DNA of 64,000 nucleotides from Escherichia coli (GTDB lineage: Bacteria > Pseudomonadota > Gammaproteobacteria > Enterobacterales > Enterobacteriaceae), in NCBI GenBank assembly GCA_002099625.1, contig GCA_002099625.1_4857.1. The stretch is one strand, 5' to 3'. The notes below the pieces were generated by a model, which did not search any database, had not been told where the DNA came from, and saw nothing but the letters and a program-made list of their open reading frames with translations. Position numbers and translations under genes: made by a program. Positions 2,806-63,145 of this stretch are shown here, in pieces. The first letter of the stretch is position 1. Every line of letters starts with the position of its first letter.

Positions 2806-2829
2806 CACCTAAGTAATATATATCTGAAA
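2806..2829 (-). promoter_or_regulatory. class A phage promoter-like motif
   Basis: Minus-strand TTTCAGATATATATTACTTAGGTG; near-identical copies at 24757, 54641 and 63146, each about 50 nt upstream of a minus gene start. Confidence 0.6.
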
Positions 2830-7623: not shown

Positions 7624-7682
7624 TTTAATTGCTCCTTAATACATGACATAAGTTCTGATTGAAACGTAAATTTCAGAGGTTC

Positions 7683-7706
7683 ACTGAGATAACATCTATC
7701 TGAAAT
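7683..7706 (-). promoter_or_regulatory. class B phage promoter-like motif
   Basis: Minus-strand TTTCAGATAGATGTTATCTCAGTG; related copies at 18184, 26453, 46767 and 47567. Confidence 0.55.
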
Positions 7707-7745
7707 AAAATAAAGCGTACCAGCCACCCCGAAGGATAGCTGGTA
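7704..7745 (-). terminator. intrinsic terminator
   Basis: Stem accagc/gctggt around ccccgaagg, T-run on minus strand; after stop of 7751..10768. Confidence 0.6.
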
Positions 7746-18151: not shown

Positions 18152-18183
18152 CTACTTTTTCCTTTCTTTACAGTTAGGTTCAG

Positions 18184-18205
18184 TAAAATAACATCTATCT
18201 GAAAA
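18184..18205 (-). promoter_or_regulatory. class B phage promoter-like motif
   Basis: Minus-strand TTTTCAGATAGATGTTATTTTA. Confidence 0.5.
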
Positions 18206-24339: not shown

Positions 24340-24705
24340 CTACATCACTGCAGAAGGTTTACGTGCCATGACTTTAAGTCCCGTATCTCGTACCCGGATA
24401 GGACAATTATTCATGTAATCAATGCAGGATTCAATTTTGAAGCTGTGTCGACATTTACCGTTGATGGAACGGTAGACGATTTCGTAATTCAGGCGCAGTG
24501 TATCGGCAACCCGCATTAACGTTTCAATAGTCACGGCCTTCTCACGTTCATTTTTAATCGCAGATATTTGTGACGGCGAGCAACCTACTAATAACGCAAC
24601 GTCTTTCTGCGTAACGTCCTTCGCAGTAACACGTGTAATAATGTAAGAAAGACGAACCAAAAACGCTTTCTTTGCCAACACAACTGTTTGATGTTTAAAA
24701 CGCAT
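24340..24705 (-). CDS. HTH (XRE/Cro-like) transcriptional regulator
   Basis: Helix-turn-helix signature TQKDVALLVGCSPSQISAIKN; first gene after class A promoter. Confidence 0.55.
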   Translation of the reverse strand: MRFKHQTVVLAKKAFLVRLSYIITRVTAKDVTQKDVALLVGCSPSQISAIKNEREKAVTIETLMRVADTLRLNYEIVYRSINGKCRHSFKIESCIDYMNNCPIRVRDTGLKVMARKPSAVM

Positions 24706-24756
24706 TAGAATACTCCTTTAGATTAATAGTCGATTAGAGAGTTTAGTAGTAACTCT

Positions 24757-24780
24757 CACCTAGGTAATATATATCTGAAA
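24757..24780 (-). promoter_or_regulatory. class A phage promoter-like motif
   Basis: Minus-strand TTTCAGATATATATTACCTAGGTG, followed by hairpin GAGAGTT/AACTCTC and leader TAATCGAC. Confidence 0.6.
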
Positions 24781-24821: not shown

Positions 24822-24866
24822 CTGTAAAAAAGGCAATACCCTCTTACCCGAAGGTAAGAGGGGGTA
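24822..24866 (-). terminator. intrinsic terminator
   Basis: Stem accctcttacc/ggtaagagggggt with cgaagg loop, T-run on minus strand. Confidence 0.75.
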
Positions 24867-26452: not shown

Positions 26453-26482
26453 CGTCTCCCTAAGATAATATCTATCCGAAAA
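26453..26482 (-). promoter_or_regulatory. class B phage promoter-like motif
   Basis: Minus-strand TTTTCGGATAGATATTATCTTAGGGAGACGTG. Confidence 0.5.
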
Positions 26483-43937: not shown

Positions 43938-45716
43938 TTAGCGGCCGATTTTAGCAATGTCTTCTTCGGTCGGTCTGATGTACGGGTCCAGTTTAGGATT
44001 CCGCATCATTACCAAACTTGGGTTGGTCTTCATGTACGGGTTGAGGATGTTCGCCTTAAACGGTGCCGACTTAGGAATATAATAGACGTTACCACATTCC
44101 AGATGCGACGCGGATGCGTGCTTAGTACGGTCGTTCAAGTTAACGGTCTTGCCTCCTTTCTTCGAACGCTTAGCATCGGTTTCGGTTTGACCGATGGCGT
44201 GCGTAGACACTGCCAATACCATTGATTCTGTAGAGGCATTGAAGAAACTGATACCGCCGTTGCTCGTAATGGTGCGCATCACCAGATTGAGCACGATCTG
44301 TTTGTTCAGTGCGTCTCGAATAGACTTCGCCGCTGTCTCTGGAGTCCGATGTTCCAACTGCCCCAGCTTCCAACGTATTTTCGAGATCGTTGTGGTAAAG
44401 CCACGTTGGCCCAACAGTAAGTAATCGGTTACCGTGAGACGTTTTCCGTACATAGACGGAATATCATCTTGTTTGGTAAGACGAGTACGCACCATCAGCT
44501 GCGTGGTATACCAGAGGAAATCAAACATATCCAAATCATCAGGGATGGACGGATCGTTTGCCATCAGCTCACCACGGAAGGTGCTGTTGACATAGCGTTC
44601 ACATTCCTGGAAGTGGCTGTCCATACTGCGACTCAGTTCGATATCCGAAGGCTTCAGTCCGCGAATACTGCGGCCCAACACTTCACGCCAAGACGCTGCA
44701 GAGTTGAGGTTTGCAATATCTTCGTCCATTGCCATTTCATTAATCTGTGTAAACAGCCCCGGCAGTGTTGGTGCACGACCGTTCTTACTGTTCTGTTTAC
44801 CTGCGTAATAGTGCGCCGCTTTGAAGAATGCGGCAGTCGCTACCAGCAACAGATGTTCGTTTTGATCCCAACGCCCTGCATCGGTGTTAGGCATATCTTC
44901 ACGTTTAACCAACAGCACGTACTGGATGGTCTTCGCGAGTTGTGGCTCACCGGATTGAATCACCACATACTTCGTTAAGTCCACATCACGTACTTTAATT
45001 GCTGGCCAAATCGCCACATCAACGCCCGCATAACGCTTCACGGCTTGTTTAAAGCCATAACGCCCAAAGAGCCAATACATCAGTGGCTTCTCATCGGTGT
45101 CGTGTCCAATCTGTCCGGTTGAGACAAACAGATTCGATGTACCTGGCAAGAACAGCTGCTCAGGGCGACCATTCACCAGAATCTTCGTTGGTTTCTTACA
45201 GAACTTGATCGACACCTTGCGAGTGAAGTCAAAGTTAATAAAGATACCACCATGCTCACGACATATACCAGGTTGATGGATTACAGGTGCTACGTGGTAC
45301 GTTGTACCATAGTAGTTCATTAAGCCGCCACGACGAATAAACGGCAGGCTCATTGGTCGTTGTACCGGGCGAGGATCACCTGGAACTCGGAACGAGGCCA
45401 TTACCATATACGTGTCAGTGGATGAGATGTTAATAATTGACCGGCCACGATTATTTCGTGAATTGTTATCCGACTTCGATAACTTAAAGATAAAAGCTTC
45501 AAACGGCGACATTTGGCGACAACCTAGTACCGTTAACCCTTCTGGTAATTTCGGGTTATCGATTTCATCATACGTCAACTCACGACGTAGAATGGTTGCC
45601 ACACGATCATGTATCCCATCTTTAGCTTGTGTGTACCCAACTCCTTCTGCAATTGCACGATTAAAAGGCACTATTTCGCCTGCCTCTTTAATCTTCCTAA
45701 TCGCATCTTTAAACAC
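43938..45716 (-). CDS. large hypothetical protein, possible virion protein
   Basis: 592-aa ORF. Confidence 0.55.
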   Translation of the reverse strand: MFKDAIRKIKEAGEIVPFNRAIAEGVGYTQAKDGIHDRVATILRRELTYDEIDNPKLPEGLTVLGCRQMSPFEAFIFKLSKSDNNSRNNRGRSIINISSTDTYMVMASFRVPGDPRPVQRPMSLPFIRRGGLMNYYGTTYHVAPVIHQPGICREHGGIFINFDFTRKVSIKFCKKPTKILVNGRPEQLFLPGTSNLFVSTGQIGHDTDEKPLMYWLFGRYGFKQAVKRYAGVDVAIWPAIKVRDVDLTKYVVIQSGEPQLAKTIQYVLLVKREDMPNTDAGRWDQNEHLLLVATAAFFKAAHYYAGKQNSKNGRAPTLPGLFTQINEMAMDEDIANLNSAASWREVLGRSIRGLKPSDIELSRSMDSHFQECERYVNSTFRGELMANDPSIPDDLDMFDFLWYTTQLMVRTRLTKQDDIPSMYGKRLTVTDYLLLGQRGFTTTISKIRWKLGQLEHRTPETAAKSIRDALNKQIVLNLVMRTITSNGGISFFNASTESMVLAVSTHAIGQTETDAKRSKKGGKTVNLNDRTKHASASHLECGNVYYIPKSAPFKANILNPYMKTNPSLVMMRNPKLDPYIRPTEEDIAKIGR

Positions 45717-45727
45717 ACCGGCCTCCC

Positions 45728-46732
45728 TCAGAGAATCATCCCAACGAGTGCTACCCCTGCAGCCAAATACGCGGGAATGGATTTCAAGAACTCCGAGCTA
45801 TCTTTTCGCTGATAAGCTCGGGACTCGTATTGGTCTTTACGAACATCGGAACGCAACTTAAGCTCATTCGTCTGGATTGCGTTAAGGGTGTTAATCCTCT
45901 CCTTCTCCAGCGCCAGATTATTAAGTTGCGTACGATAATCGAGGTCTTGCCGATTCTTTTTCTCATCGAGATCTTGCAACTTGGCCTGATACGTGGCTTC
46001 CAGCTTCGCACGAACATCTCGCAACTCTGGAATGTTATCGAGCCACCGATAACGCCTCGCTTCATCTTCAGATGCAAACGCCCGGAACGGGGACATCGGG
46101 TCATCGAAAGCGTACATTATCATCTTACCCCCTTCGACACACTCCGCACCACCGATTACCATGTAAATACCCTCGTCGTAATACTTCGATCGAATCGGTT
46201 CGACTTCCAACATCGTTGTATAGAACCTCAGCCACTTTAAAGGTGCTGGGTCTTCGTACTTCTGCACAACTACCACGCCCAAGGCAAATTCTTTACGATC
46301 CCCTCCAGGCTTACCAATAACCTCAGAATCGAGTTTTACTGGTTGGGTAGAGAAAGCCATTCCTAGCTTCTTCAACACCACCAAGTCGCCTCGCATTAAT
46401 GCACCGATATCATCAACTACATACATCAGCGTTGTTTCGCCGTTCGTAGTTAATTCCTTACATATCTGCGCATACTGCTTTGGCGAATGTGCGTCGCGCA
46501 AACCAGATAGGTTAGCACCGTTCGCAAACACCGTATAGGTCACGTAAATAACAATCCCAAATTCCGCCGCTGTGGTGGACGACGGGGCTAAAACAAAATG
46601 CCCGCCACTGAGTTCAGTGACGTAAATGGGAAACCCGGTATTATTTTCGTACGTGATAGTCTTCGACACGGCACCACGGTGCATGGGCCGCTGGGTTAGC
46701 GTTGGCTGAACGTCTAAATCATAACGGTTCAT
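45728..46732 (-). CDS. hypothetical protein with C-terminal TM anchor
   Basis: Start at ATG 46732 (MNRYDL); C-terminus IPAYLAAGVALVGMIL; class B promoter 35 nt upstream. Confidence 0.5.
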   Translation of the reverse strand: MNRYDLDVQPTLTQRPMHRGAVSKTITYENNTGFPIYVTELSGGHFVLAPSSTTAAEFGIVIYVTYTVFANGANLSGLRDAHSPKQYAQICKELTTNGETTLMYVVDDIGALMRGDLVVLKKLGMAFSTQPVKLDSEVIGKPGGDRKEFALGVVVVQKYEDPAPLKWLRFYTTMLEVEPIRSKYYDEGIYMVIGGAECVEGGKMIMYAFDDPMSPFRAFASEDEARRYRWLDNIPELRDVRAKLEATYQAKLQDLDEKKNRQDLDYRTQLNNLALEKERINTLNAIQTNELKLRSDVRKDQYESRAYQRKDSSEFLKSIPAYLAAGVALVGMIL

Positions 46733-46766
46733 TGAGCATCCCAGTAATAATACCAAAAGAATTATT

Positions 46767-46790
46767 CACGTAGATAATATCTATCTCAGA
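46767..46790 (-). promoter_or_regulatory. class B phage promoter-like motif
   Basis: Minus-strand TCTGAGATAGATATTATCTACGTG. Confidence 0.5.
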
Positions 46791-46837
46791 TTACTTTGGG
46801 CACGGGTTCATACCCAGTGCCCGTAACGTAAAAAACT

Positions 46838-47536
46838 TTAGGGTATTAGGCGTTGGGCTATTTCGCGGAGTTGGTCGCGGGTTAAATCAGCCAACTTCTG
46901 GTCGCCGAAGCCCAACTTCAGACCCAGCTCGTATCCAGCTTGCGGATACGTGTTCGTGTTTGCTACTGAGAGGAGTGCATCGGCTATCTTTACCATCGTT
47001 AACTCGAGAGACGCATACGGGGCGGGGATCGGCTGATTCACGATTTGGTAATTATAACGCACTGCGGCGTTATCGTAGTCAAACTCCATCCTTCTGCCGA
47101 GAACGTTAAACGACTCCGCAGAATAACTACCAAATGGGTGATTGGCTTTTTCCCACAAATCTTTCCGTTCAGTAAACCCAGTCGCGAAGTTCTGACGTAT
47201 GGTGTCGAATATTTGCGTTGCCTGGCTAGGGTGTATATTTTTCAGCTCATTGTAGTCGTAGTCGGCGATGGAATATAGAGTGAACACAACACCGTTTATA
47301 TTTAACTGCGGATAATCCATCCGCAGACTATCATCACCTTGTAAATGAAGTTCCCACATCCTCACCCACTGCAATATCGCACTTACCGCATCGTGACTGA
47401 GATAAAAATTAGTAGGTTCTTCAGAATTTTCACGGAAGGGAACAGAGCATTCCGATGCAAAAAAGCCGGCTGCCATAAATCCTCTGCCGTCGAACATAGG
47501 CGCAACTAATCTTGATTTTTCTAAATTGATTACCAT
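46838..47536 (-). CDS. hypothetical protein
   Basis: 232-aa ORF; SD TAAGGAG; class B promoter 30 nt upstream. Confidence 0.55.
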   Translation of the reverse strand: MVINLEKSRLVAPMFDGRGFMAAGFFASECSVPFRENSEEPTNFYLSHDAVSAILQWVRMWELHLQGDDSLRMDYPQLNINGVVFTLYSIADYDYNELKNIHPSQATQIFDTIRQNFATGFTERKDLWEKANHPFGSYSAESFNVLGRRMEFDYDNAAVRYNYQIVNQPIPAPYASLELTMVKIADALLSVANTNTYPQAGYELGLKLGFGDQKLADLTRDQLREIAQRLIP

Positions 47537-47566
47537 TACTGTCTCCTTAAGTTAAAACCGAACGAC

Positions 47567-47595
47567 TCTCTCCCTAAGATAATATCTATCTATAA
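47567..47595 (-). promoter_or_regulatory. class B phage promoter-like motif
   Basis: Minus-strand TTTATAGATAGATATTATCTTAGGGAGAG. Confidence 0.55.
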
Positions 47596-47599
47596 ATTT

Positions 47600-47642
47600 T
47601 TAGAAAAAAAGAAAAAGCTTACTCCCCGAAGGGAGTAAGCTA
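47600..47642 (-). terminator. intrinsic terminator
   Basis: Stem gcttactccc/gggagtaagc with cgaa loop; T-run on minus strand. Confidence 0.75.
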
Positions 47643-47671
47643 ATCTTAGGCAACGTAATCCTTACGGATTA

Positions 47672-49969
47672 TTAGCCGCCAGCGCCTTCACCGCCAGTAC
47701 CTGGCTGGGTACCGCCGCCAACATCACCAGCATTACCACCGTCAGTACCGCCGGTACCGTTGGAAGTAGTAGTGACGTTGAACGCCAGTTTCTCTTCCAC
47801 GAACTTGGTGATACCTTTAATCCAGATCAGACCAGTGATCGGGCAGTGGCAGATGTGCGCGTTACGAGGCTGTACTGCCAGCTCTTTGCTGGTAGCGCCG
47901 TTACGCTGGATGTTGATGTTGGTTACCATGATCGGAGACCAGAAGTGGTTACCCCAGTTCAGAACACAGTAAGAACCATCATCAGCGGTTGGAACTTTCA
48001 GAACCCACTGCAGGCGGCGAGTCCAGCTGCCGTCAGCTTCGTTCTTCACACGCCAGCGGTCATCGTTGGTGGTGATAACTTCGTACTCGTAGCGATCGCC
48101 CAGCAGACGCTGGTCACCCTGAACCAGCAGCAGCATTGCAGCAGTCGGTTCGTCAGTTGCGATAACAACTTTCGGCAGTGCGTTCGGGTCCGCAGTCAGC
48201 AGGCGCAGAGCCGGCATGAAGCGAGAGTCCTGGATAGCACGAGTTACCTGGTCACCGATACGCTGTACCAGACCCTGACGGGCGTTGATGAGCGCATCTT
48301 TGGTATCCAGAGACTGGATCACTTTGTCCACTTCGTAGTCGCTTTCGCTGTACCACGGAGCAACCCAGTGACGGCCCAGGCCGCGGATAGCAGGTTTGTC
48401 CCACGGAGTGATCATGGACGCAGCTGCGTTCTTAACCGCTTCGGTGTAAGACAGAGTCTGAGTGATAGCCAGCATTTCGTTACGGATGTTAACCGCAGAA
48501 ACGAGGTCGTCCAGACGTTCGGTGTCGTCGTATTCAACGCCAACCGGAGATTTGGTCATGATCGGAGAACCGTACTGCAGTTTGTAGTTCTCTTGTTCCC
48601 AAATCGGGTCGAGCAGAAGGCCCTGGGTTCTCCGGTTCTCGTTGGTACGAGTACCGTCGAAGCGCCAGCCCAGCAGCTCCAGTTTCAGGTTGTCGATGAT
48701 CACTTTACCGGTGCCGCTTTCGATATCAACAGCAGTACCAGTTGCGTCGTACAGACCTTCGATTTCCAGAGACGGTGCAGTCACGTCAACACGACCAGAG
48801 AACTGACCGTTGGTGAACAGAGACATGCTGATGTTCATGGAATAACGAATGGTGTAATCGTTCTGTGCCAGAGCGGCCAGTGCCGGGATTTCAGCACCTT
48901 TCCAGTCCAGAGACTTGGCGTTCAGGGAGAACACGGTGCGACGGAACTGCAGGACCAGCTCACGGCCATCACCTTCAGGAGGACGCTGGAAAGTAGCGAA
49001 CTGCATGTCGCGTACGTTCAGTTTGATCAGCGCACCATCTTTCGCTTCTTCGGTCGGCTTACGCACAGACAGCAGCAGGCTACCCAGCGCCGCACCCGGT
49101 GCGATTTCGTCGGTTTCATCGTAACCTTCCTGCACGATACCCGGATGGGCAGACAGCTGGAACAGGTTCAGACGACGTTCAGAGAAGCTCAGGTAGTTGG
49201 TCGGATACGCCGGCACACGACCCAGCTGAACGTTTTCGTTTTCGATGATGTCTTCGGATACGAAGAACTTCGCGTTCTCGCCGGTTTCCATCACGTAAGG
49301 AACGATACGGATAGCATCGTCCTGCAGGACTTTGTGGTTAGACAGCGCGTTATGCAGCGGCTGACGGTTGTCTTCAACCACGTCTTTGGTCAGCAGGGCG
49401 TTCAGGATACCACGAGTTACAGTAGTAACTTTGGTACGAACGGTGATGCCGACGTCGTTGGTGTCCACAGTGATGGTCGGGAACAGGGTTTCTGCAAACT
49501 TGGATTGAGTTTCCAGAGCACGCACGTTCAGCGTCCAGGTCAGACCCAGGTTTTTGTCCAGGTCTTTGTTGGTGTAGTATTCGGTTGCGACCAGCGGAGT
49601 TTTACCGTAGTCAGCAGCCAGAGATGCTGCACCGGAAATAGCGATCGGCATGTAGCTGGCATATTCCGGCTTCGCGCTCTCAGCAGCAACACGGGTCATG
49701 AAGTCATCTTCGTGACCGGCAGCAGCCAGAATCATCGCAGAAGCAACCTGAGCAGCGTGGCTCATGGTTTTGCCAGGGTTTACAGCTTCGTAGTGCTGCT
49801 GAGCAGTGTCACGCAGGTTGGTGAAGCCGGCAGCATTTTTACGTACAGATTCGCCAACGGCTACGGTTTGCCATACGTCATTAGCGGAAGAGCCTGCCTT
49901 GGCAGCAGCGACCAGAGCATTGCCCTGCTGAACCAGCTGGTCCAGACTAGCGATACGGGTATCTTTCAT
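47672..49969 (-). CDS. abundant large structural protein, major capsid or sheath candidate
   Basis: 765-aa ORF with strongly biased codon usage, strong downstream terminator, Gly-rich C-terminal tail; the antisense 715-aa plus ORF has R/V/F/Q-rich junk-like composition. Confidence 0.55.
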   Translation of the reverse strand: MKDTRIASLDQLVQQGNALVAAAKAGSSANDVWQTVAVGESVRKNAAGFTNLRDTAQQHYEAVNPGKTMSHAAQVASAMILAAAGHEDDFMTRVAAESAKPEYASYMPIAISGAASLAADYGKTPLVATEYYTNKDLDKNLGLTWTLNVRALETQSKFAETLFPTITVDTNDVGITVRTKVTTVTRGILNALLTKDVVEDNRQPLHNALSNHKVLQDDAIRIVPYVMETGENAKFFVSEDIIENENVQLGRVPAYPTNYLSFSERRLNLFQLSAHPGIVQEGYDETDEIAPGAALGSLLLSVRKPTEEAKDGALIKLNVRDMQFATFQRPPEGDGRELVLQFRRTVFSLNAKSLDWKGAEIPALAALAQNDYTIRYSMNISMSLFTNGQFSGRVDVTAPSLEIEGLYDATGTAVDIESGTGKVIIDNLKLELLGWRFDGTRTNENRRTQGLLLDPIWEQENYKLQYGSPIMTKSPVGVEYDDTERLDDLVSAVNIRNEMLAITQTLSYTEAVKNAAASMITPWDKPAIRGLGRHWVAPWYSESDYEVDKVIQSLDTKDALINARQGLVQRIGDQVTRAIQDSRFMPALRLLTADPNALPKVVIATDEPTAAMLLLVQGDQRLLGDRYEYEVITTNDDRWRVKNEADGSWTRRLQWVLKVPTADDGSYCVLNWGNHFWSPIMVTNINIQRNGATSKELAVQPRNAHICHCPITGLIWIKGITKFVEEKLAFNVTTTSNGTGGTDGGNAGDVGGGTQPGTGGEGAGG

Positions 49970-49981
49970 TTCAAGTTTACC

Positions 49982-50506
49982 TTATTTAGATAAATGACAT
50001 GCGTACAACTGCGTCAGCACTTCGTGCGCAGCAAACTGCGTCGACGTACTGAACGTATCATCCACGACACGAGTCTTGGGACGCATATATTTAAAAAGTT
50101 CTGCGCAGAACATCTTTTTCGCAGCGTGGTCTTCACTTAAAGAAAAACCCGGTCCGGATTTAGCTTCTGCAAAAGACGCCACAACAACATCGCCACGTTG
50201 TGAGAACACCCAACGTAAACGACCGTCGAATGATTCCCCATATAAATCAGCAAGGGTTTCATTCGTACCTTTCTCAACCAGGTTTAAGACCTGGTCATAA
50301 TAAAGAGTCGGAAGTGCAGGTGGTGCCATAATCGATTTATAAATCGAAATAGGGTCACTCACTGGCAGTATGATGGAACTAAAGCCCGACGAGCAGTCAT
50401 ATAACCAGTTAAAGAAGCTTGCTTGGAGTTCCTCCAACTTTTTAACGCCAGCCCCTTTATCTATGTTAGATTGAACTTCCCACGGTGGACTAAAACGAAT
50501 TTGCAT
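49982..50506 (-). CDS. hypothetical protein
   Basis: Start at ATG 50506 (MQIRFSPPW), 15 nt from the divergent plus-strand start. Confidence 0.5.
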   Translation of the reverse strand: MQIRFSPPWEVQSNIDKGAGVKKLEELQASFFNWLYDCSSGFSSIILPVSDPISIYKSIMAPPALPTLYYDQVLNLVEKGTNETLADLYGESFDGRLRWVFSQRGDVVVASFAEAKSGPGFSLSEDHAAKKMFCAELFKYMRPKTRVVDDTFSTSTQFAAHEVLTQLYACHLSK

Positions 50507-50520
50507 TTTAAGGATGCTCC

Positions 50521-52083
50521 ATGAATAGTAAAATGATGTTGATAACCGCCTTAGCCGCACTGTATACAGAATCTATGCTGACGGACCCTAGCAAGGATCA
50601 TGATGTCATAAGAAAAGTTCTGATGCAGATCAAGCTTCCGGAATATGCGGAAGATGGCGAAGAGCGCTTTGCACTCATCGAGATCAAGGACATTATCACA
50701 TCTATCATAGACGGCGGCATGGAATACGACCACGCGAGCGTTATGAAGCGCTTGAAGCTGGCCACCACTCAAGTACGTCCTCTATACGATACGATTACCA
50801 AATTCCTCGAAGACGATTTGCCCGAGGAAGAAGACAAACGTACCGAGCATCTTAATCGACAACTGTCTCAATATTATTTCCAATTACGTCAATGTTTACA
50901 GAGCGTCGAACTCAAAACAAAAATGGGTCGCGCGTTCGGAGCATTGAATGGAACTGAGACACGTGTTGATCTGAACACCGCAGTGCTCGAACTCAAAGAG
51001 GCGCTATCTACGTTCGGTGAACGCTCTCATAATAAGATTCCATCACTGGTTGGTGAGCTGGTTACGGATAATCGTGCTCCGTTTGTTAAAGTGTTCGACT
51101 CGATTAACAAGAAAGCAGCAGGTAATGGTTTGCAGACGGGCTGGAAAGCCATTAACCAAATGCTCGGTTGTAACAAAGGGATTACCGAAGAACTGTGGCT
51201 AATGCCGGCGTTACCTTTTAACTGTAAGTCTTTGTTCAGTCTCTTACTGAGCTTGTCGATTCCTATCTTCAACACGCCTGAGAAAGTAATGGCGGATGTG
51301 AAGGGCACACTGCAACCAATTATTCTTGACTTGAGTTTAGAAAACGAACTCGACGTTAACTTAGCTTACGGCTATCAAGCACTGTACGGTCATTTTGAAG
51401 GACAAGTTCCACAGATGACCATTGCCCAAGATGCGACCGCTGAAGAGAAGTTAGCACACACAACAGCAATGTCTGATTACCTCTGTGGTAAGATTCGCGC
51501 AAACGGTTGGGACTACGTTTTCCAAAAGCACACCAACTCCGATTTTAAAGTGCACTACATCAACGACCTTATTCTCGACTTACGTCGTCGCGGTTATCAT
51601 GTTGTTGGCATTCGCGCAGACTACTTAGGCACAATCAGCAAAGCAGGACACGGCAACGGTATTGCCGGGAGTGATATCAAAGAAATTTATCGTATTGCTC
51701 GTAACATCCAAGTGGTACGCAACCGTGGGTTCTTAATTGCCCCACACCAGATTTCCCCAGAAGGTAAGCGCTTAAAAGCGTTAGACCCGGTAGGTTTCTG
51801 TAAGAACTTACCTGGTCGTGGTCTTTACGATAGTTGTTCGAGCCTTGATAACGAGGCCGATGGTGAAATGTATTTTAACAAGCGTGTGGTCAACGGCCAT
51901 AGCTTCTTAGAAGTTCAACGCGGTAAGCACCGCACCATTATCGATACTAAAGAATCTTATCACTACACAGTGATACCTTTCCAGGATGTTGGCATCCTGC
52001 CTTGGGATTGTGATAAAGAAGAAACCGTAACAGCGTCGTCTATCAACTTCTTCACCGGTGGAATGGGTGATGATTTGTTCTAA
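50521..52083 (+). CDS. hypothetical protein, plus-strand
   Basis: Continuous 520-aa plus ORF with SD AAGGA; minus frames fragmented. Confidence 0.55.
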   Translation: MNSKMMLITALAALYTESMLTDPSKDHDVIRKVLMQIKLPEYAEDGEERFALIEIKDIITSIIDGGMEYDHASVMKRLKLATTQVRPLYDTITKFLEDDLPEEEDKRTEHLNRQLSQYYFQLRQCLQSVELKTKMGRAFGALNGTETRVDLNTAVLELKEALSTFGERSHNKIPSLVGELVTDNRAPFVKVFDSINKKAAGNGLQTGWKAINQMLGCNKGITEELWLMPALPFNCKSLFSLLLSLSIPIFNTPEKVMADVKGTLQPIILDLSLENELDVNLAYGYQALYGHFEGQVPQMTIAQDATAEEKLAHTTAMSDYLCGKIRANGWDYVFQKHTNSDFKVHYINDLILDLRRRGYHVVGIRADYLGTISKAGHGNGIAGSDIKEIYRIARNIQVVRNRGFLIAPHQISPEGKRLKALDPVGFCKNLPGRGLYDSCSSLDNEADGEMYFNKRVVNGHSFLEVQRGKHRTIIDTKESYHYTVIPFQDVGILPWDCDKEETVTASSINFFTGGMGDDLF

Positions 52084-52216
52084 CGAACACTGGGGAGCTT
52101 AGGCTCCCCTACGGGCAGTTTATGCGTCCTGCCAAGATCAAAAAAAAATACGACGAACTATTTATATGCATGGAATTACCCGAGTGTTCCAGCACTCGGG
52201 TAAGAGTTATTTCATG

Positions 52217-52363
52217 TTAACTTTTGTTTAGTAGTATTTCACCTCCTAAACCCTTGATACGACGAACAGTGTTCTGCTTGGGCGCAGTCAACTGTTGTAC
52301 ACGTTGGTTGAATTGGGTTTGCTTAACGTAATAGTTAAGTATTTGCGAACGTAGTTGTTCCAT
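52217..52363 (-). CDS. micro-protein, paralog A (48 aa)
   Basis: ATG 52363 with SD AAGGAGG; ends IKGLGGEILLNKS; paralog of 52476..52622. Confidence 0.5.
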   Translation of the reverse strand: MEQLRSQILNYYVKQTQFNQRVQQLTAPKQNTVRRIKGLGGEILLNKS

Positions 52364-52379
52364 GTAGTGCCTCCTTAGG

Positions 52380-52400
52380 CAGGTTGTTAATATATCGCTG
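52380..52400 (-). promoter_or_regulatory. class A-like promoter variant
   Basis: Minus-strand CAGCGATATATTAACAACCTG shares the ATATATTA core; low confidence. Confidence 0.3.
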
Positions 52401-52439
52401 CGCTGTGGTGGTACACAATGCACCGATATACTGTCACGG

Positions 52440-52468
52440 GAGTTAAAAGGGGTGCTCGAACACCCCTG
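52440..52468 (-). terminator. intrinsic terminator
   Basis: Stem aggggtg/cacccct; T-run on minus strand; after stop of micro-ORF B. Confidence 0.6.
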
Positions 52469-52475
52469 GTTAGTG

Positions 52476-52622
52476 TTACTTCTTATTGAAGATGATGTCA
52501 CCTCCTAGTCCTTTAATGGTACGGGTGGAAGTCTGCGTTGGGCGGCTAACCTCTTGCAGACGTTGTTGAAAAGCGACTTGTTTCAGCTGTTGCTGACGCA
52601 GTTGTTGCATAAAGGTATTCAT
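52476..52622 (-). CDS. micro-protein, paralog B (48 aa)
   Basis: ATG 52622 with SD AGAGG; ends IKGLGGDIIFNKK; below the 60-aa cutoff of the ORF track. Confidence 0.5.
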   Translation of the reverse strand: MNTFMQQLRQQQLKQVAFQQRLQEVSRPTQTSTRTIKGLGGDIIFNKK

Positions 52623-52648
52623 GTTAACCTCTAAGTGGATGTGAATAA

Positions 52649-52690
52649 GCTCTCTCCTTCGGGAGAGAGCGCCTTTTATTTTCTTTTCGG
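52649..52690 (+). terminator. hairpin with plus-strand T-run
   Basis: Stem gctctctcc/ggagagagc with ttcg loop followed by ttttattttcttttc on plus strand; also lies in the 5' UTR of micro-ORF B. Confidence 0.4.
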
Positions 52691-52731
52691 AAAATAAATA
52701 TAAAACCCTCTTACCCGAAGGTAAGAGGGGT
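52690..52731 (-). terminator. intrinsic terminator
   Basis: Stem ccctcttac/gtaagaggg with ccgaagg loop; A-run on plus strand. Confidence 0.7.
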
Positions 52732-52735
52732 ACTA

Positions 52736-53596
52736 CTACGGTTTATAATCAACTTCGTTGATCTTGCCGCAAGCCGGACAAGCAATGTTCATTGTCTGCG
52801 AAGTATAGCGATGGGTTCTCGGTACTGTAGCGACATGGTTGCGGTTACAGCCGGAACACGTCCAGCCAACCACTGGTGCCTTCGATTGTTTCTGGGCAGG
52901 TGTGTCTTCTTTTAACAATGCGACTACCGCGTGAAATTTACGAAGCTCTGCGTTAACATGCGCTTCCCAGTCGGCGTCCAAACGCGCCGTGAACCAACGT
53001 TGAATCTTCTGGCCAAGTCCGTCTTGATTTTCTTCTTCATGGGACATCACAAACTTGAGATTTGCACGACCCCATTGCACGACGTTCTCTACTTTAATCC
53101 CGTCTACGGTGTCGCTGATTGGCGTATAGTTAAAAGTTGGATAGGTGAGATAACAAGCTTCAGCTGTTGCAAAGACAGTATTGCCTTCAAACAGTGCCAT
53201 GGCCTCATCGCCCTTAGCATCCTTCTGTGCGGCTTCCAATCGTGGGCAATGGAAACCTTCAAGTTGCTGGATTTTGGTCGTTAGCACATTGATACCCTGT
53301 AGCACGGCAATGCGCTTTTTGCTGTCTGTGATCGTCGCCATTACCTTGCACAACGCGCGCGAGATAGCGCTATACATTGACGTTTTGCGGTTTTCATCGA
53401 GGAAACGCTCTTGCTGCTCCAGGTCGTAAGAAGACAGGCCGTAGCTCTGCCCTTCGACCAACACGACATAAGTACGACGTTTGTCGCGGTCCAGCTGGAC
53501 AATGGCCGCATCGGTTAACGGATCGCTAGCCAATACTTCGTGGTTGGGAGGTAGGGGGAAATCCGAACTTTTGATAAAATCAGTAATGCTGTACAT
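52736..53596 (-). CDS. hypothetical protein with C-terminal zinc ribbon
   Basis: 286-aa ORF; C-terminal CSGCN...CPACGK. Confidence 0.55.
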   Translation of the reverse strand: MYSITDFIKSSDFPLPPNHEVLASDPLTDAAIVQLDRDKRRTYVVLVEGQSYGLSSYDLEQQERFLDENRKTSMYSAISRALCKVMATITDSKKRIAVLQGINVLTTKIQQLEGFHCPRLEAAQKDAKGDEAMALFEGNTVFATAEACYLTYPTFNYTPISDTVDGIKVENVVQWGRANLKFVMSHEEENQDGLGQKIQRWFTARLDADWEAHVNAELRKFHAVVALLKEDTPAQKQSKAPVVGWTCSGCNRNHVATVPRTHRYTSQTMNIACPACGKINEVDYKP

Positions 53597-53599
53597 TTT

Positions 53600-54016
53600 T
53601 TAGTCCTTAAGAGAGTTAATAAAGTCATCTAAACTAATATCACGGAATGGGAAGTAAACACCTTCAAGCGGAATCGTGTAGTGTTCACTAATGGCACGTT
53701 GCCAATCCAGAACAGTTGCAGGGTAGTTCACAACCTCAAAGTTAGGATGCGTGATTGGCGGAATTGCGTTGTAAACATAGCCGTTAATATTTTTCGATGG
53801 GAACGCTGCACGGAACTTCGGCTCCATGTAGAACATTTCTTCTTTTACTTCCTGGCCTTCCCAGAAACGATAGCCACCCTTACCGTCAGGAATATAAATC
53901 GCCTTGTCACGGGGTATAGGGGAATCCTTGGATAGCGGAACAAATCGCCCGTACTGGTCAAGAACCATCCAGTCAGTGTCATTCTTTAAATACTTTTGGA
54001 GCTTCTCATTAATCAT
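53600..54016 (-). CDS. hypothetical protein
   Basis: Start probably ATG 54016 or 54022; the ORF track N-terminal extension runs through the terminator. Confidence 0.5.
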   Translation of the reverse strand: MINEKLQKYLKNDTDWMVLDQYGRFVPLSKDSPIPRDKAIYIPDGKGGYRFWEGQEVKEEMFYMEPKFRAAFPSKNINGYVYNAIPPITHPNFEVVNYPATVLDWQRAISEHYTIPLEGVYFPFRDISLDDFINSLKD

Positions 54017-54032
54017 TTTCATGTTCCTTAGG

Positions 54033-54062
54033 CAAAAAATAATACCACCCGTAGGTGGTATT
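54033..54062 (-). terminator. intrinsic terminator
   Basis: Stem accacc/ggtggt with cgta loop; A-run on plus strand. Confidence 0.6.
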
Positions 54063-54074
54063 AAATTATCTATA

Positions 54075-54263
54075 CTACTTCTTCCCGAGTTCCCCACGGA
54101 ACTTCGCCAGCTCTTCTTTCCAGTCCGGCTTCGGTAGTGCGCTTTTCGGCCCCACGATAAACGTACGTTCTGAGGTTTGCGGATTCACCTCTACTGTTTC
54201 GTTATCTTCCACTTCGCGAAGCACGATTCCGTTTTTACCATCGTAATTAACTAAAACGCCCAT
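54075..54263 (-). CDS. small hypothetical protein
   Basis: 62-aa ORF. Confidence 0.45.
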   Translation of the reverse strand: MGVLVNYDGKNGIVLREVEDNETVEVNPQTSERTFIVGPKSALPKPDWKEELAKFRGELGKK

Positions 54264-54445
54264 TAGTAAATCTCCTGCTGCATTGGAAACACATTACCTG
54301 TCGGTGAGACGAGTAAGACTTGCGCGGTAACGTGAACAATTTCTTCTTCGTCCTGATGACGAACACCGTTAGTGAGATTATCCCACTCACGTTTAACACG
54401 AGGGTGAGATAAGAACTCGGCAAACTGCGTATCAGAAAAGTCCAT
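54263..54445 (-). CDS. small hypothetical protein
   Basis: Start ATG 54445 overlaps stop of upstream micro-ORF (TAATG coupling). Confidence 0.45.
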   Translation of the reverse strand: MDFSDTQFAEFLSHPRVKREWDNLTNGVRHQDEEEIVHVTAQVLLVSPTGNVFPMQQEIY

Positions 54446-54588
54446 TAGCCGCGACCTGTGCACATGGCAACAGAGTTACCGTTATCGATGCATTTGTTGT
54501 AATCTTGAGTTACAGTGATAGACAGTACCGCGAAAGCAACAACAGCAACGATTGCGAAGATGGCACGTTTATGGTTACGAGTTAACAT
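54445..54588 (-). CDS. small membrane protein (47 aa)
   Basis: MLTRNHKRAIFAIVAVVAFAVLSITV...; single TM; first ORF after class A promoter; not in ORF track (under 60 aa). Confidence 0.45.
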   Translation of the reverse strand: MLTRNHKRAIFAIVAVVAFAVLSITVTQDYNKCIDNGNSVAMCTGRG

Positions 54589-54640
54589 GGTAATACTCCT
54601 TTAGCTTAATAGTCGATTGAGTTGATAGATTGTCTTCTAT

Positions 54641-54664
54641 CACCTAGGTAATATATATCTGAAA
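54641..54664 (-). promoter_or_regulatory. class A phage promoter-like motif
   Basis: Minus-strand TTTCAGATATATATTACCTAGGTG followed by hairpin GATAG/CTATC and leader. Confidence 0.6.
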
Positions 54665-54689
54665 TTATTTTTATTCAGAGTACACCCTC

Positions 54690-54795
54690 TATAACGCTCT
54701 CAAACGCGTTTTGAGAGCTTTTATCACTTTAGAGGGTCGTTCTACCGTTAGAGTGGCTTTAGAAGGTTGTGTGTGCGTTTAGAGGGCTAAAATAA
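54690..54795. repeat. intergenic palindrome plus four TTAGARKG direct repeats
   Basis: Inverted repeat gctctcaaa-cgcgt-tttgagagc at 54696..54718; repeats tttagaggg, gttagagtg, tttagaagg and tttagaggg follow over about 60 bp. Confidence 0.5.
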
Positions 54796-54824
54796 AGAGA
54801 CCTGGTCTCACAAGGAGACCAGGC
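54786..54824 (-). terminator. intrinsic terminator
   Basis: Stem cctggtctc/gagaccagg; A-run on plus strand upstream. Confidence 0.65.
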
Positions 54825-54830
54825 ACACTT

Positions 54831-55628
54831 TTACATCAAATCCAGGCTCTGAGAGACCGCAACTTCCGGTTCACTGATGCCGCTGGTCACTGACAATGTA
54901 AAGCGACGATCGTTAATCACTTCAACTGCCTCGCTCGCACGCAGTGAATACTTATCGGCGATTGGCAGTACACTGTTATCGTTCTGTGGCGGCAGAATCT
55001 GTGCCGGGAACGGAATGTACGAGTTGAAAGTGATATACGGACCGACTTGCATCATCGGGAACACTTCGTTCACGTTATTCGACATCCCTTCATCCGAAGA
55101 GATAACGGAGTGACGCAGACAGGCACGCAAGCCAACGGTGTACTCCGGATCGCGCGATTCGCCGATCAGTGCGAAACGGAACACGTTGAAATCGTAGTCG
55201 TCTGCAGCGAAGTGTTCTGGCAGGATACGCTGTACGTATTCAGGGTAAGTGGTCACGTCACCCGGAATAACATTCACGGCGAGTTTCTGTGCCAGGAAAT
55301 ACGCATTCGCGAAACCGTACTGCCCCGCCAGCGCAGCTGATATCGGTGCAGTGGTTACGCAGTGCAGGAACAAGTGATAACCCAGCCCGCCTTTATCTTC
55401 GATTGCCAGGTCCTTCTTACTCTGCACACCGTCAGCAGTATAAATAACTGCCACTGTTTTATCCAACGTTGATGCCATGACAAAATCCAACTGCACCTCA
55501 CCGCTTTGCGGCAGTACCTTAACCAGGCGATCCCAGAGCTTGGTCGGTTTGGTGAAGTTAGCGGCTTCGTACGCATCAATGTCGAGAACAGTTTGGCCGG
55601 TCATGCGAAAGGTGTGAATCGCTTTCAT
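54831..55628 (-). CDS. hypothetical protein, possible virion protein
   Basis: 265-aa ORF. Confidence 0.55.
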   Translation of the reverse strand: MKAIHTFRMTGQTVLDIDAYEAANFTKPTKLWDRLVKVLPQSGEVQLDFVMASTLDKTVAVIYTADGVQSKKDLAIEDKGGLGYHLFLHCVTTAPISAALAGQYGFANAYFLAQKLAVNVIPGDVTTYPEYVQRILPEHFAADDYDFNVFRFALIGESRDPEYTVGLRACLRHSVISSDEGMSNNVNEVFPMMQVGPYITFNSYIPFPAQILPPQNDNSVLPIADKYSLRASEAVEVINDRRFTLSVTSGISEPEVAVSQSLDLM

Positions 55629-55671
55629 TGCAATATTTTCCTTAAGGTTACTTACGGGTCATACTAGATGA

Positions 55672-56985
55672 CTAAGCTGTAAATTTTTCATCTTTGAGCC
55701 AAAGACTCAGTTGTGATTGGGTGTTATAGCGTCCTGATGCCATCGTTTGACCGTCGACAGCAGACTGGAACACTTCACCCACCAACGTGCCGTAGCGGGT
55801 ATAGACCCCATACTCGTTGGCAAAAACGTATTTTACTGGCATACCGGGATATAGGATGCCGTGCGTTGATCGGTTCCAGGTTGTTTGCACAATCGTACCC
55901 AGACCCATCTCCAGTTTAGACCGCTGTGGTTTATCGGTATCGCTAAAGTGCTTATCAGGATCGATTGGTGCGTTAACCACACCACCTGGATACGCAGCAG
56001 GGTCGGCCTGTGCCACAAATTTATCAGGTGTGGTCATACTGATGTCGCCAGGCGTAAATGAACTACTACGCCCATCCAACACACGTACAGACCCTACCCG
56101 GTAACCCGTACCCTGGTTAAGCGCGGCCTGGTCACGGTATTCCAAACTACTGGTGTCGCCGCCACAAATCAGATAGATAACATTACCCGCGATATCGGTG
56201 GTGCGGTCAATGTGAGCAGCCTGTTCACGAGGCAAGTTATAAATGACCAGTTTAGGCTTCGTTGTGTTATTAAACTTCAACGAGTCCCAAGGTCGATACA
56301 GATACCATCGTTGTAGGTATTGGAAGACCCCAATACCTTTGCTGTAAACACCGTAATGGTTCTGCAGATAATCAAACACGCTTAAGAAGTCTTCGGAGTC
56401 TGGTATAACGATGTCCCGATATGCCTGCTGTTCTTCTTCATCGTATTCAATCCCTTTCAACTGCCCCTCTGCAGCCACCCCTTCCGGCAACGTATCCGCC
56501 AATATCGAGCGAGCCACTGTTAACCCATCTGTTTCGTGGTAGATGCCGCCCACTTGACGATTACGCAGGAACCACATCGACTCATCCATCAGCTCCAATG
56601 TTACCAATGCGATAGATTTCTCATCAGACTGACTCAAGAACATCGTCGGTGATTCCGCGTTGTGGTCGCGGTTATTTATCACGATGCCGCGGTAGTTAAA
56701 GACCCCTGCGATTTTCTGTCCACGACGCAGTAACAGCTTTACCTTCAAATCCCCTTCTGCGGACGATGTGATCATTCGCATGTGGCTGTAGGGGATAGCC
56801 AAGGTGAGATGTGTCAATAAACAGATATCACGCGTAAAGTGACCGGTGTGAATGATAGACAGCATCTTCAACACCGTCACTGGGGCACCGTGCACCGTGA
56901 GGAATATCCCGTAGTCGATAGCCGGTAACCCCCGAGCATTAGCGATGTGACCGTTCGCCATCTGTTGTAACCGACCAAACGACAT
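55672..56985 (-). CDS. hypothetical protein, possible virion protein
   Basis: 437-aa ORF. Confidence 0.55.
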   Translation of the reverse strand: MSFGRLQQMANGHIANARGLPAIDYGIFLTVHGAPVTVLKMLSIIHTGHFTRDICLLTHLTLAIPYSHMRMITSSAEGDLKVKLLLRRGQKIAGVFNYRGIVINNRDHNAESPTMFLSQSDEKSIALVTLELMDESMWFLRNRQVGGIYHETDGLTVARSILADTLPEGVAAEGQLKGIEYDEEEQQAYRDIVIPDSEDFLSVFDYLQNHYGVYSKGIGVFQYLQRWYLYRPWDSLKFNNTTKPKLVIYNLPREQAAHIDRTTDIAGNVIYLICGGDTSSLEYRDQAALNQGTGYRVGSVRVLDGRSSSFTPGDISMTTPDKFVAQADPAAYPGGVVNAPIDPDKHFSDTDKPQRSKLEMGLGTIVQTTWNRSTHGILYPGMPVKYVFANEYGVYTRYGTLVGEVFQSAVDGQTMASGRYNTQSQLSLWLKDEKFTA

Positions 56986-57524
56986 TAGCGACCTCCTCGG
57001 GCTCTATAAGCGTACTCAATACGTTTCATAATCGTATCATTAAAACGGTGGAGTTTAGACTCCAGGCGGACCTGTCCAAATAACGACTGAACACAGTCCG
57101 CCATCGTTGCGGTGGGTTTCTTGAAATACCCGTAGCGGTTAGCCACAGGAAACAGTTTCGAAGCCAGCACATTGAACTGACGCAACCCTTCGATAGGGAC
57201 TTCCCGGTAAATCAGCGTCGGGTTCTCCAGATAGTTCAGCCAGTCCGCAAGGTGTTCCATAATCCACCCGTACACTTTAATCCCGTCATGCGGGTCGTGT
57301 ACATCCAACGCACCACCTGTCGCTAAATACTCGGCAGCTTCTGAGGGGTGCAGATAGATAGGCTTCATGTTCAGTAACAACGCTTGTCGTTTCTTCGGGT
57401 CTTCTGGCAAGAACAATCCGTGTTCCTGACTGGCGTAGGTTGTGATGGTTGCGTATTCCGGTACCCGGAAGAACACCCACGCTTTAAACAGCATAAATGC
57501 TGCACTGCGCTTCTTCTCCGACAT
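56985..57524 (-). CDS. hypothetical protein
   Basis: 179-aa ORF; coupled starts and stops. Confidence 0.5.
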   Translation of the reverse strand: MSEKKRSAAFMLFKAWVFFRVPEYATITTYASQEHGLFLPEDPKKRQALLLNMKPIYLHPSEAAEYLATGGALDVHDPHDGIKVYGWIMEHLADWLNYLENPTLIYREVPIEGLRQFNVLASKLFPVANRYGYFKKPTATMADCVQSLFGQVRLESKLHRFNDTIMKRIEYAYRARGGR

Positions 57525-57526
57525 TA

Positions 57527-60359: not shown

Positions 60360-60396
60360 TAGCTGTCCCTCGTTGTAGTCATATCACTGGCCTAAA

Positions 60397-60430
60397 ACGC
60401 AAAAAAAAGAAAGGGAGCCGAAACTCCCTT
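60397..60430 (-). terminator. intrinsic terminator
   Basis: Stem gggag/ctccc with ccgaaa loop, A-run on plus strand; nested in a larger imperfect inverted repeat. Confidence 0.6.
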
Positions 60431-60436
60431 CGTGTT

Positions 60437-60766
60437 TTAGTGGGCCAGCCAAGCTAGCTGCCACTTCTTACATTTTATTCCGCTGTGTCCAACCGGATTG
60501 CGGATAATGTCCATCGTTTTCCCGACAACGAATTCAATCATCTTGTCTGATAGCATTTTACCCATCGCGATAGAGAGGGCCGTAACCTGATCAGGGTCAT
60601 CGATGTACGCATAGACCGGCTCATTACTGCCGAAGATAAGATAGAAGGAACCCTCGCAGGCCACGATTGAGGTCAGTGGCACGATGCACCCGGTATACAC
60701 TCTCGCCAGTTCAGCCGCTTTTGGGGTTACTTCCATTACGTAACCCTTAACAGATTTCTTTTCCAC
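60437..60766 (-). CDS. hypothetical protein
   Basis: 109-aa ORF. Confidence 0.5.
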   Translation of the reverse strand: MEKKSVKGYVMEVTPKAAELARVYTGCIVPLTSIVACEGSFYLIFGSNEPVYAYIDDPDQVTALSIAMGKMLSDKMIEFVVGKTMDIIRNPVGHSGIKCKKWQLAWLAH

Positions 60767-60767
60767 T

Positions 60768-61687: not shown

Positions 61688-61696
61688 CTCACAATC

Positions 61697-61729
61697 CCAA
61701 AAAAGAAGGTGGCTTGTTAGGCCACCTTA
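61697..61729 (-). terminator. intrinsic terminator
   Basis: Stem aaggtggc/gccacctt; A-run on plus strand. Confidence 0.7.
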
Positions 61730-61734
61730 TTAAA

Positions 61735-62280: not shown

Positions 62281-62317
62281 TATAAATACTCCTTACGATT
62301 AATGGTCGATTACATAC

Positions 62318-62346
62318 GGTTTCAGGCTAACGTAATATTTACGCTG
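62318..62346 (-). promoter_or_regulatory. class A-like promoter variant
   Basis: Minus-strand CAGCGTAAATATTACGTTAGCCTGAAACC; overlaps the 3' end of 62339..63100. Confidence 0.4.
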
Positions 62347-63100: not shown

Positions 63101-63145
63101 ATTCCTTAAGTAATGGTCAGTTAGTAAAGCAAATCATTGTTTGCT

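Follow-up and report, generated by a model that had tools for sequence, protein, structure and literature searches.

The 24-nucleotide (nt) motif at positions 24757-24780 of contig GCA_002099625.1_4857.1 raises the question of whether it is a promoter and, if so, which RNA polymerase reads it. The stretch of the contig that was analysed, here called the window, is 64,000 nt long and is filed under Escherichia coli. An earlier reading of the letters alone (the sequence-only reading) had taken the motif for a compact promoter of a phage RNA polymerase rather than of host sigma70. Every sequence-level test agrees with this, namely the family consensus, the geometry, the placement before the genes of a non-virion RNA polymerase (nvRNAP), and the lack of a sigma70 promoter pair. 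Motifs of this kind are already well known as the early promoters of phiKZ-like phages. Judged from its sequence, the 24-mer is very probably an early promoter that is read by the multisubunit RNA polymerase packaged in the phage virion (vRNAP).

Copies and placement of the motif

The pattern TTTCAGATATATATTACYTAGGTG occurs four times without mismatch, always on the minus strand of the window (2806-2829, 24757-24780, 54641-54664, and 63146-63169). It has no match in 100 dinucleotide-preserving shuffles, even when up to three mismatches are allowed. The four near-identical copies described previously are thus exact matches at all four positions, with none expected by shuffling. Counted from the motif's 3' end, the ATG of the following minus-strand open reading frame (ORF) is 54, 52, 53, and 46 nt away in the same order, which reproduces the 46-54 nt given before. 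A minus-strand intrinsic terminator lies 33-136 nt upstream of all four copies (2864-2887, 24839-24862, 54800-54824, and 63203-63228), so the description of each copy as standing after a terminator also holds.

Around the motif, a 6-kb segment shares 96.6-98% identity with Salmonella phages that belong to the SPN3US group (genus Seoulvirus) and 60-80% with several jumbo phages of Erwinia amylovora. By its sequence, the window is assigned to an SPN3US-like (Seoulvirus) phage, a phiKZ-related giant phage of Salmonella. Phages of the SPN3US group are related to phiKZ, form a nucleus, and carry genes for two multisubunit RNA polymerases. The vRNAP of SPN3US has the subunits gp42, gp218, gp240, gp241, and gp244, which are head-associated by mass spectrometry (PMC5105663).

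Match to early promoters of phiKZ-related phages

The predicted early-promoter consensus of phiKZ is TATATTAC, that of 201phi2-1 is TTTRARR_BTATATTACDWHDGTG, and that of OBP is BSHAWWWWWTTTYARRYAKATATTATYWWADTG, with nearly the same consensus in N1M2 (PMC7058600). The sequence-only reading had likened the ATATATTAC core to phiKZ-like early promoters, and the published consensus sequences verify this resemblance. The 24-nt pattern of OBP, a Pseudomonas phage, gives nine sites in the window at three or fewer mismatches, with none expected, and these are exactly the nine sites of the weight matrix described below. A literature search with the literal core sequences returned only unrelated primers.

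The mapped early promoter of AR9 is AAATATATATTAT-(6N)-G(+1), and the same 6-nt distance from element to start holds for phiKZ and phiR1-37 (PMC5312081). Differential RNA sequencing (dRNA-seq) of phiKZ shows an extended -10 element plus a T-rich element upstream of -19 (PMC8244752), and in 201phi2-1, ONT-cappable-seq locates the AT-rich motif some 10 bp before the start (PMC11512511). Among 39 sites from SPN3US and the Erwinia phage Asesino (genus Erskinevirus), a G stands 6 nt after the core in every case, both in class A, the class of the flagged motif (12/12), and in a second class B (27/27). Because the mapped relatives start at this distance and the G is found there in all 39 sites, the last base of the 24-mer is the predicted +1. 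In the phiKZ family, the conserved AT-rich element is roughly 10 nt long with its centre near -10. The AT-rich core AGATAKATATTA is invariant or nearly so across the 39 sites of two genera, and it spans -18 to -7 if the conserved G is +1.

Further upstream, the 39 sites have TTT at -23 to -21, an A/T-rich segment at -28 to -24, and an invariant A at -29, which agrees with the T-rich element and the A-rich tract beyond it in phiKZ, OBP, and N1M2. The earlier statement that the upstream flank is not conserved is nearly right, as no -35-like element is present; the exceptions are A-29 and the A/T-rich segment.

The resemblance to the phiKZ-related early promoters comprises the AT-rich core, the G six nt on, the T-rich block near -21, an A about 6 nt further upstream, and the position at operon heads on the main coding strand, nvRNAP genes included. 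The copy number is also alike, with 23 sites in SPN3US against 28-32 in phiKZ, 31 in N1M2, and 41 in AR9. In contrast, two discrete core classes coexist here and are kept between genera, while the published accounts, in the parts consulted, give one early consensus per phage. At 46-54 nt, the predicted class A leaders are longer than those of phiKZ, which typically have 31-40 nt (PMC8244752). A conserved hairpin opens the class A leaders, and none is mentioned for phiKZ-related early promoters in the consulted parts of those accounts.

The nine sites of the window

A relaxed search finds a second, looser set of minus-strand sites with the core AGATAGATATTATCT (class B). A weight matrix was built from the sites of this search and iterated on the complete SPN3US genome. 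Its scores in the window are bimodal, with nine minus-strand sites of at least 28.9 bits (range 28.9-41) and below them only reverse re-reads and background. Four of the nine are class A (2806, 24757, 54641, and 63146) and five are class B (7682, 18181, 26458, 46767, and 47572). All lie wholly inside the 10.5% of the window that has no minus-strand ORFs of at least 90 amino acids (aa), and each heads a run of minus-strand genes. None of the first genes behind the sites could be given a function by Pfam and phrog searches, except for one that codes for a helix-turn-helix (HTH) protein at 24340-24705. First genes without known function are typical of jumbo-phage early genes.

Two further places, 62318-62346 and 52380-52400, had been listed as looser variants of the motif. 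They are rejected as promoters, since the family matrix gives -5.4 bits (62325-62348) and +1.1 bits (52380-52403), which is the level of background, compared with 28.9-41 for the real sites. The variant at 62318-62346 keeps only the downstream leader box and Shine-Dalgarno sequence.

The flagged class A site (24757-24780, minus strand) scores 37.8 bits, has two mismatches to the OBP consensus, and has its predicted +1 at the G of 24757. In this site TATATTAC occupies -14 to -7 and TTT occupies -23 to -21. The first gene of the transcription unit (24340-24705, minus strand) codes for a 121-aa Cro/C1-type HTH protein (Pfam HTH_3, E = 9e-8; phrog_7126). The upstream thymidylate kinase (tmk) unit ends in the intrinsic terminator at 24839-24862 (minus strand), which lies 58 nt before the promoter and is conserved in Erwinia relatives. 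The 24-nt terminator hairpin CCCTCTTACCTTCGGGTAAGAGGG is identical at 24839-24862 and 52706-52729, both on the minus strand, with none expected by chance. Conserved terminator motifs are also reported for phiKZ and 201phi2-1.

The other predicted class A promoters are on the minus strand as well. The one at 2806-2829 (predicted +1 at 2806) has an Asesino ortholog at 117113 that is identical in 24/24 positions. The site at 54641-54664 (predicted +1 at 54641; Asesino ortholog at 66941) precedes a 47-aa ORF at 54445-54588 (phrog_8574), and that at 63146-63169 (predicted +1 at 63146) has orthologs at 56290 in SPN3US and at 57388 in Asesino.

The predicted class B promoters, again on the minus strand, include 7682-7705 (TTTCAGATAGATGTTATCTCAGTG) with a terminator 12 nt upstream (7718-7745), and 47572-47595 with a terminator 20 nt upstream (47616-47641). 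The weakest site, 18181-18204 (28.9 bits; Asesino ortholog at 101955), is 30 nt upstream of the ATG at 18151. The site at 26458-26481 has a 94-nt leader to the ATG at 26364, and this leader has a 5'-terminal hairpin. The site at 46767-46790 heads the operon with the gene for the N-terminal part of the nvRNAP beta subunit, and its 24-mer is identical in Asesino (24/24).

Distribution in SPN3US and conservation in relatives

The motif family is found genome-wide, as a search of the complete SPN3US genome shows. It has 23 sites that reach 29 bits, each of them on the coding strand, and Markov-shuffled genomes give 0-1 positions even at 14 bits. The few reverse-strand matches in SPN3US (14-25 bits) come from a partial inverted repeat of the core, read a second time in the other direction. 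In the divergent intergenic region at 191598-191624 of SPN3US, a class B core of 24.9 bits on the opposite strand faces a minus-strand gene, and this site may be bidirectional.

The non-virion polymerase depends on the early polymerase for transcription of its genes, and those of the virion polymerase are late. The SPN3US genes were located by equating RefSeq ACQ60_gpX with SPN3US gp(266-X), which was checked against the protein lengths in PMC5105663. The nvRNAP genes gp23, gp34, gp35, and gp77 lie 26-2263 nt downstream of a site. For the five vRNAP genes, the nearest upstream site is 5.7-28 kb away.

The window has an nvRNAP subunit gene of 592 aa at 43938-45716 (minus strand), downstream of the class B site 46767 and equivalent to SPN3US gp77, and in SPN3US the +1 of the orthologous site is 1051 nt upstream of the gp77 gene. 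The product of 43938-45716 has no match in a Pfam search. A PDB sequence search matches it to the phiKZ nvRNAP subunit PHIKZ123 (PDB 7OGP chain E, E = 3e-20), and gp77 is the N-terminal fragment of nvRNAP beta (PMC5105663). The 592-aa protein carries only the label 'polymerase' in the public records searched.

The first 150 kb of Asesino contain 16 sites, all on the coding strand, which correspond one to one with the 16 SPN3US sites of the collinear region. The class is identical in all 16 ortholog pairs. The 24-mer is 85% identical in these pairs, compared with 70% in the flanks (60 nt upstream and 44 nt downstream). When a 1.5-kb query around the flagged copy is used, the more distant Erwinia phages Machina, Huxley, Parshik, and Kwan align only over the terminator-promoter-leader segment, which is unannotated. 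The order of terminator, motif, short hairpin, and Shine-Dalgarno sequence is kept at the tmk-HTH region of Asesino, Machina, pSal-SNUABM-04, pEa_SNUABM_29, and STsAS, where the spacers diverge. In Kwan, the same order stands before a different gene (gp124).

Two classes of predicted promoters

The class A consensus (n = 12, SPN3US and Asesino) is tTnnAAanna at -33 to -24 and TtTCAGATATATATTACcTAgGTG at -23 to +1, with AGAg after +1. The class B consensus (n = 27, the same two phages) is ntcnAanann at -33 to -24 and tttcaGATAGATaTTATcttngtG at -23 to +1, with a single a after +1. Common to both are A-29, the core from G-18 to A-8, and G+1. Class A has T-14 and C-7, while class B has G-14 and T-7, and these two positions co-vary in 38 of the 39 sites, the remaining one being a hybrid. 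The class A core is of the phiKZ/201phi2-1 type and carries TATATTAC. The class B core is of the OBP/AR9 type, and class B matches the OBP consensus almost perfectly. Over a longer distance, the site at the tmk-HTH region is class B-like in Machina and hybrid in pEa_SNUABM_29. The class B-like form in Machina could be taken to mean that the classes are freely interchangeable, which is opposed at the SPN3US-Asesino distance by the class conservation in 16/16 pairs.

Class B is probably read by the virion polymerase because it heads nvRNAP operons. Both classes are treated here as putative vRNAP promoters, since class B has this placement and the class A core is of the mapped phiKZ vRNAP type. 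The alternative that the two classes are read by different enzymes or factor-loaded forms, with class A as a separate temporal regulon, is quite unlikely. One class would then be read by vRNAP alone and the other would need a co-injected or early factor, or one class would be a middle promoter of the nvRNAP.

The discreteness of the classes, with -14 and -7 co-varying in 38/39 sites, speaks for such a division, as do the retention of class at 16/16 ortholog sites between Seoulvirus and Erskinevirus, the 5' hairpin that is always present only in class A, the leader box at most class A sites, and a possible 'pre-early' subgroup among the AR9 early transcripts (PMC5312081). However, class B stands directly before nvRNAP genes, which nvRNAP cannot be the first to make, and class A has the phiKZ-type TATATTAC, which is the mapped vRNAP type. 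The middle and late motifs of phiKZ (TACT near -22; TATG at +1) are unlike either class, and the class at the tmk-HTH site changes over the longer evolutionary distance to Machina and pEa_SNUABM_29.

A related proposal is that A and B are functionally distinct vRNAP classes that are kept across genera, with class A, through its hairpin and AATCGACYATTA box, forming an immediate-early post-transcriptional regulon. This is unlikely. If true, selection would have shaped the class A leaders so that the very first phage mRNAs survive, leave the early infection vesicle, or are translated preferentially. The route by which mRNA leaves the early infection vesicle is stated to be unknown (bioRxiv 10.1101/2023.09.20.558163).

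Predicted leaders of the class A units

In each of 15 distinct class A leaders, taken from the window, SPN3US, Asesino, Kwan, and STsAS, a stem starts at +1 to +3 and has a folding free energy (dG) of -5 kcal/mol or lower, which is reached by 4.5% of shuffled leaders on average. A comparable stem is present in only 10 of 24 class B leaders, at a looser cut-off of dG ≤ -3. The stem sequence in class A varies by site and by ortholog while the pairing is kept, with compensatory pairs at +3 to +7.

In the flagged unit, the 5'-terminal stem-loop covers +1 to +21 (24737-24757, minus strand; GAGAGTT/AACTCTC; dG -7.8 kcal/mol, z -4.0), and its stem covaries in orthologs (AGCATT/AATGCT, AGCGTT/AACGC, and GACAT/ATGTC). 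The corresponding minus-strand stem-loops are at 2786-2806 (+1 to +21; dG -7.5 kcal/mol, z -3.9), 54624-54641 (+1 to +18; dG -5.9 kcal/mol, z -3.0), and 63127-63146 (+1 to +20; dG -5.0 kcal/mol). At 63146, the paired stem of the window reads AGCAAA/TTTGCT; the SPN3US ortholog has AGATTGC/GTAATCT and that of Asesino AGATTC/GAATCT. What the DNA itself shows is how the sites are built, where they lie in the genome, and how they are conserved and covary.

In E. coli, a fully paired 5' end is a classic safeguard against decay that depends on the 5' end (Emory, Bouvet, and Belasco 1992; Bouvet and Belasco 1992; both cited from PMC3997798). As in the ompA and papA stabilisers, a stem at the 5' end or within 2 nt of it leaves no single-stranded tail for the RppH/RNase E sensor. 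The hairpins here differ in being short (5-9 bp, -5 to -9 kcal/mol), and the transcripts would come from a phage polymerase, possibly inside the early infection vesicle.

The leader box AATCGACYATTA has six matches in the window, compared with 0.49 expected. In most class A leaders it precedes the start codon by 17-19 nt and is closely followed by a TAAGGAG-type Shine-Dalgarno sequence; at 63146 the box is degenerate. In the flagged leader, the box is AATCGACTATTA at 24724-24735 (minus strand), 18 nt before the ATG and followed by the Shine-Dalgarno sequence TAAAGGAG, and it is kept in Asesino, pEa_SNUABM_29, and STsAS. The boxes at 2770-2781 (AATCGACCATTA) and 54607-54618 (AATCGACTATTA) are also on the minus strand.

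A box with a Shine-Dalgarno sequence at 62300-62311 (minus strand), the place of one of the former looser variants, stands before an operon-internal gene without a promoter. Promoterless boxes before operon-internal genes are also found at 57146, 167592, and 224197 of SPN3US and in Asesino. Because the box also precedes genes without their own promoter, it is tied to the translation start region and not to promoter recognition. This points to a role at the level of mRNA or translation, as far as the sequence can indicate. The box was also considered as a translational enhancer that pairs with 16S rRNA and was rejected in this role, as its complementarity to E. coli 16S rRNA is no better than that of shuffles, of which 87/300 and 279/300 reach the observed values. 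An Rfam covariance-model search of the whole window gives no match at the gathering score.

At 165683-165790 of SPN3US, a class A promoter with a +1 hairpin is followed by a terminator (GCTACCTTCGGGTAGC and a T-run) at about +25 to +55, before the next gene. By analogy with the short RNAs derived from 5' untranslated regions in phiKZ and 201phi2-1, this element could be a short leader RNA or an attenuator. The part of the window from 44001 to 64000 contains 46 terminator-like hairpins, many with a TTCG tetraloop, against 20.1 +/- 4.4 in shuffles. This excess fits many short, insulated transcription units.

Comparison with other promoter systems and other explanations

The T4-like PeSL cassettes (PMC2839356, PMC4122927) are short conserved units of a terminator and an early promoter that are repeated between small genes of unknown function. 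They mark the boundaries of insertions and deletions in closely related phages. The sites here likewise recur as short conserved units between small genes of unknown function, with a composite of terminator and promoter at 4/4 class A and 2/5 class B sites of the window. What looks like a gene inserted between repeated leader elements is seen in the single case of STsAS. In contrast, the PeSL promoters are host sigma70 early promoters, whereas the sites here are not sigma70-like, and PeSL marks hyperplastic regions, whereas the site positions here are stable between genera.

Phage N4 also delivers a polymerase from the virion at the start of infection and has a small hairpin with each promoter. 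In N4, a single-subunit polymerase recognises the hairpin itself, a DNA structure upstream of the start site. The hairpin here lies at +1 to +21 and its sequence is free to vary, while the conserved element is an upstream duplex motif without a hairpin. An N4-type hairpin promoter is therefore rejected.

It is very improbable that the motif serves as an operator rather than a promoter, bound by a phage protein such as the HTH protein encoded at 24340-24705. The core does contain a partial inverted repeat (AGATA-N5-TATCT) with weak reverse-strand matrix matches, and an HTH_3 gene lies behind one class A site. However, the reverse reads score 6-25 bits compared with 29-41 for the forward reads, and invariant positions (A-29, TTT, and G+1) lie outside the repeat. 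The orientation of the motif always follows the downstream gene, and the motif matches experimentally mapped promoters of relatives.

That the class A copies are a dispersed mobile or recombination cassette without a regulatory function of their own is hardly credible. The class A copies are far more alike than the class B copies, two of them have ccgattacaatWat upstream in common, and the retrieved piece of Salmonella phage STsAS (positions 1364-1930 of that piece) has an extra unannotated ORF that separates the class A promoter from the HTH gene, each of the two genes being preceded by a copy of the leader box; the T4-type PeSL cassettes (PMC4122927) are a precedent. Yet positions and classes are stable between genera, the hairpin covaries and is not copied, and a promoter needs just such a position, behind a terminator and at the head of a gene run. 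A role in shuffling would add to the promoter function and would not replace it.

The same very low probability applies to host sigma70 promoters with the AT-rich core acting as the -10 element, a reading that is rejected: the core has TATATT/TATATA-like hexamers and one marginal 9/12 match overlaps a class B site (46761-46789, within chance expectation), but the 32 sites have no -35-like hexamer 16-18 nt from an in-motif -10 candidate at the 9/12 criterion, the matches in the window are at or below chance (9 vs 12.6, 19 vs 21.7, and 22 vs 26.8 expected), the conserved TTTCAG and CTAGGTG have no sigma70 counterpart, and host RNA polymerase is not needed for phiKZ development.

Proposed mechanism and points against it

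The vRNAP would enter the cell together with the phage DNA and would initiate at the terminal G of the 24-mer, followed by A. The promoter would consist of the invariant A-29, the T-rich segment at -23 to -21, the core from G-18 to A-8 (AGATAKATATTA) centred near -12, and the initiating G. The class A module would comprise the terminator, the promoter, a stem-loop over the first 18-21 nt including +1, the AATCGACYATTA box, and a strong Shine-Dalgarno sequence of the TAAGGAG type. Complete pairing of the 5' end may shield the triphosphate from RppH and 5'-end-dependent RNase E, which would lengthen the life of the mRNA, and the unstructured region of box and Shine-Dalgarno sequence may allow efficient translation. 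What is inferred for these units is where and when transcription starts, which polymerase carries it out, and what the hairpin and box do.

Several points weigh against reading the 24-mer as an early vRNAP promoter. The +1 position, the polymerase, and the label 'early' are drawn by homology from phiKZ, AR9, and phiR1-37. A vRNAP early promoter of the phiKZ family would give transcripts within minutes, despite rifampicin or a block of protein synthesis. A literature search for SPN3US-like phages found no promoter, transcriptome, or primer-extension study and no data on start sites, timing, or rifampicin. In AR9, a predicted early promoter can be silent through a single deviation from the consensus (PMC5312081), so not all nine sites need be active, the weakest being 18181. 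The coding-strand bias of the sites is weak evidence by itself, since about 87% of the SPN3US genes share that strand. The matrix was trained on the same phage family and its counts are partly circular, which is offset because the OBP consensus, independent of this genome, finds the same sites. With regard to the leader, the complementarity of the box to 16S rRNA does not exceed chance, and both the hairpin as a stabiliser and the box as a functional element are putative.

Implications

SPN3US-group phages serve as a genetic model for giant phages and are considered for the control of Salmonella and Erwinia. The motif provides a ready map of early transcription units in these phages, with nine starts in the window and 23 in SPN3US, and this map takes in the operons that build the second, non-virion polymerase. 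The class difference at -14 and -7, which is kept between genera, is a natural experiment on the bases that the vRNAP reads; the part of the literature examined contains no characterised complex of a vRNAP with its promoter. The class A leader, with its +1 hairpin, box, and strong Shine-Dalgarno sequence, is a compact, portable expression module and a candidate for protecting or favouring the first phage mRNAs. Three details may be new, though incremental: the existence of two classes that are kept from genus to genus, the +1 hairpin in every class A leader, and the box anchored to the start codon. The picture of jumbo-phage transcription is unchanged, and it is extended with added detail to another group of genera.

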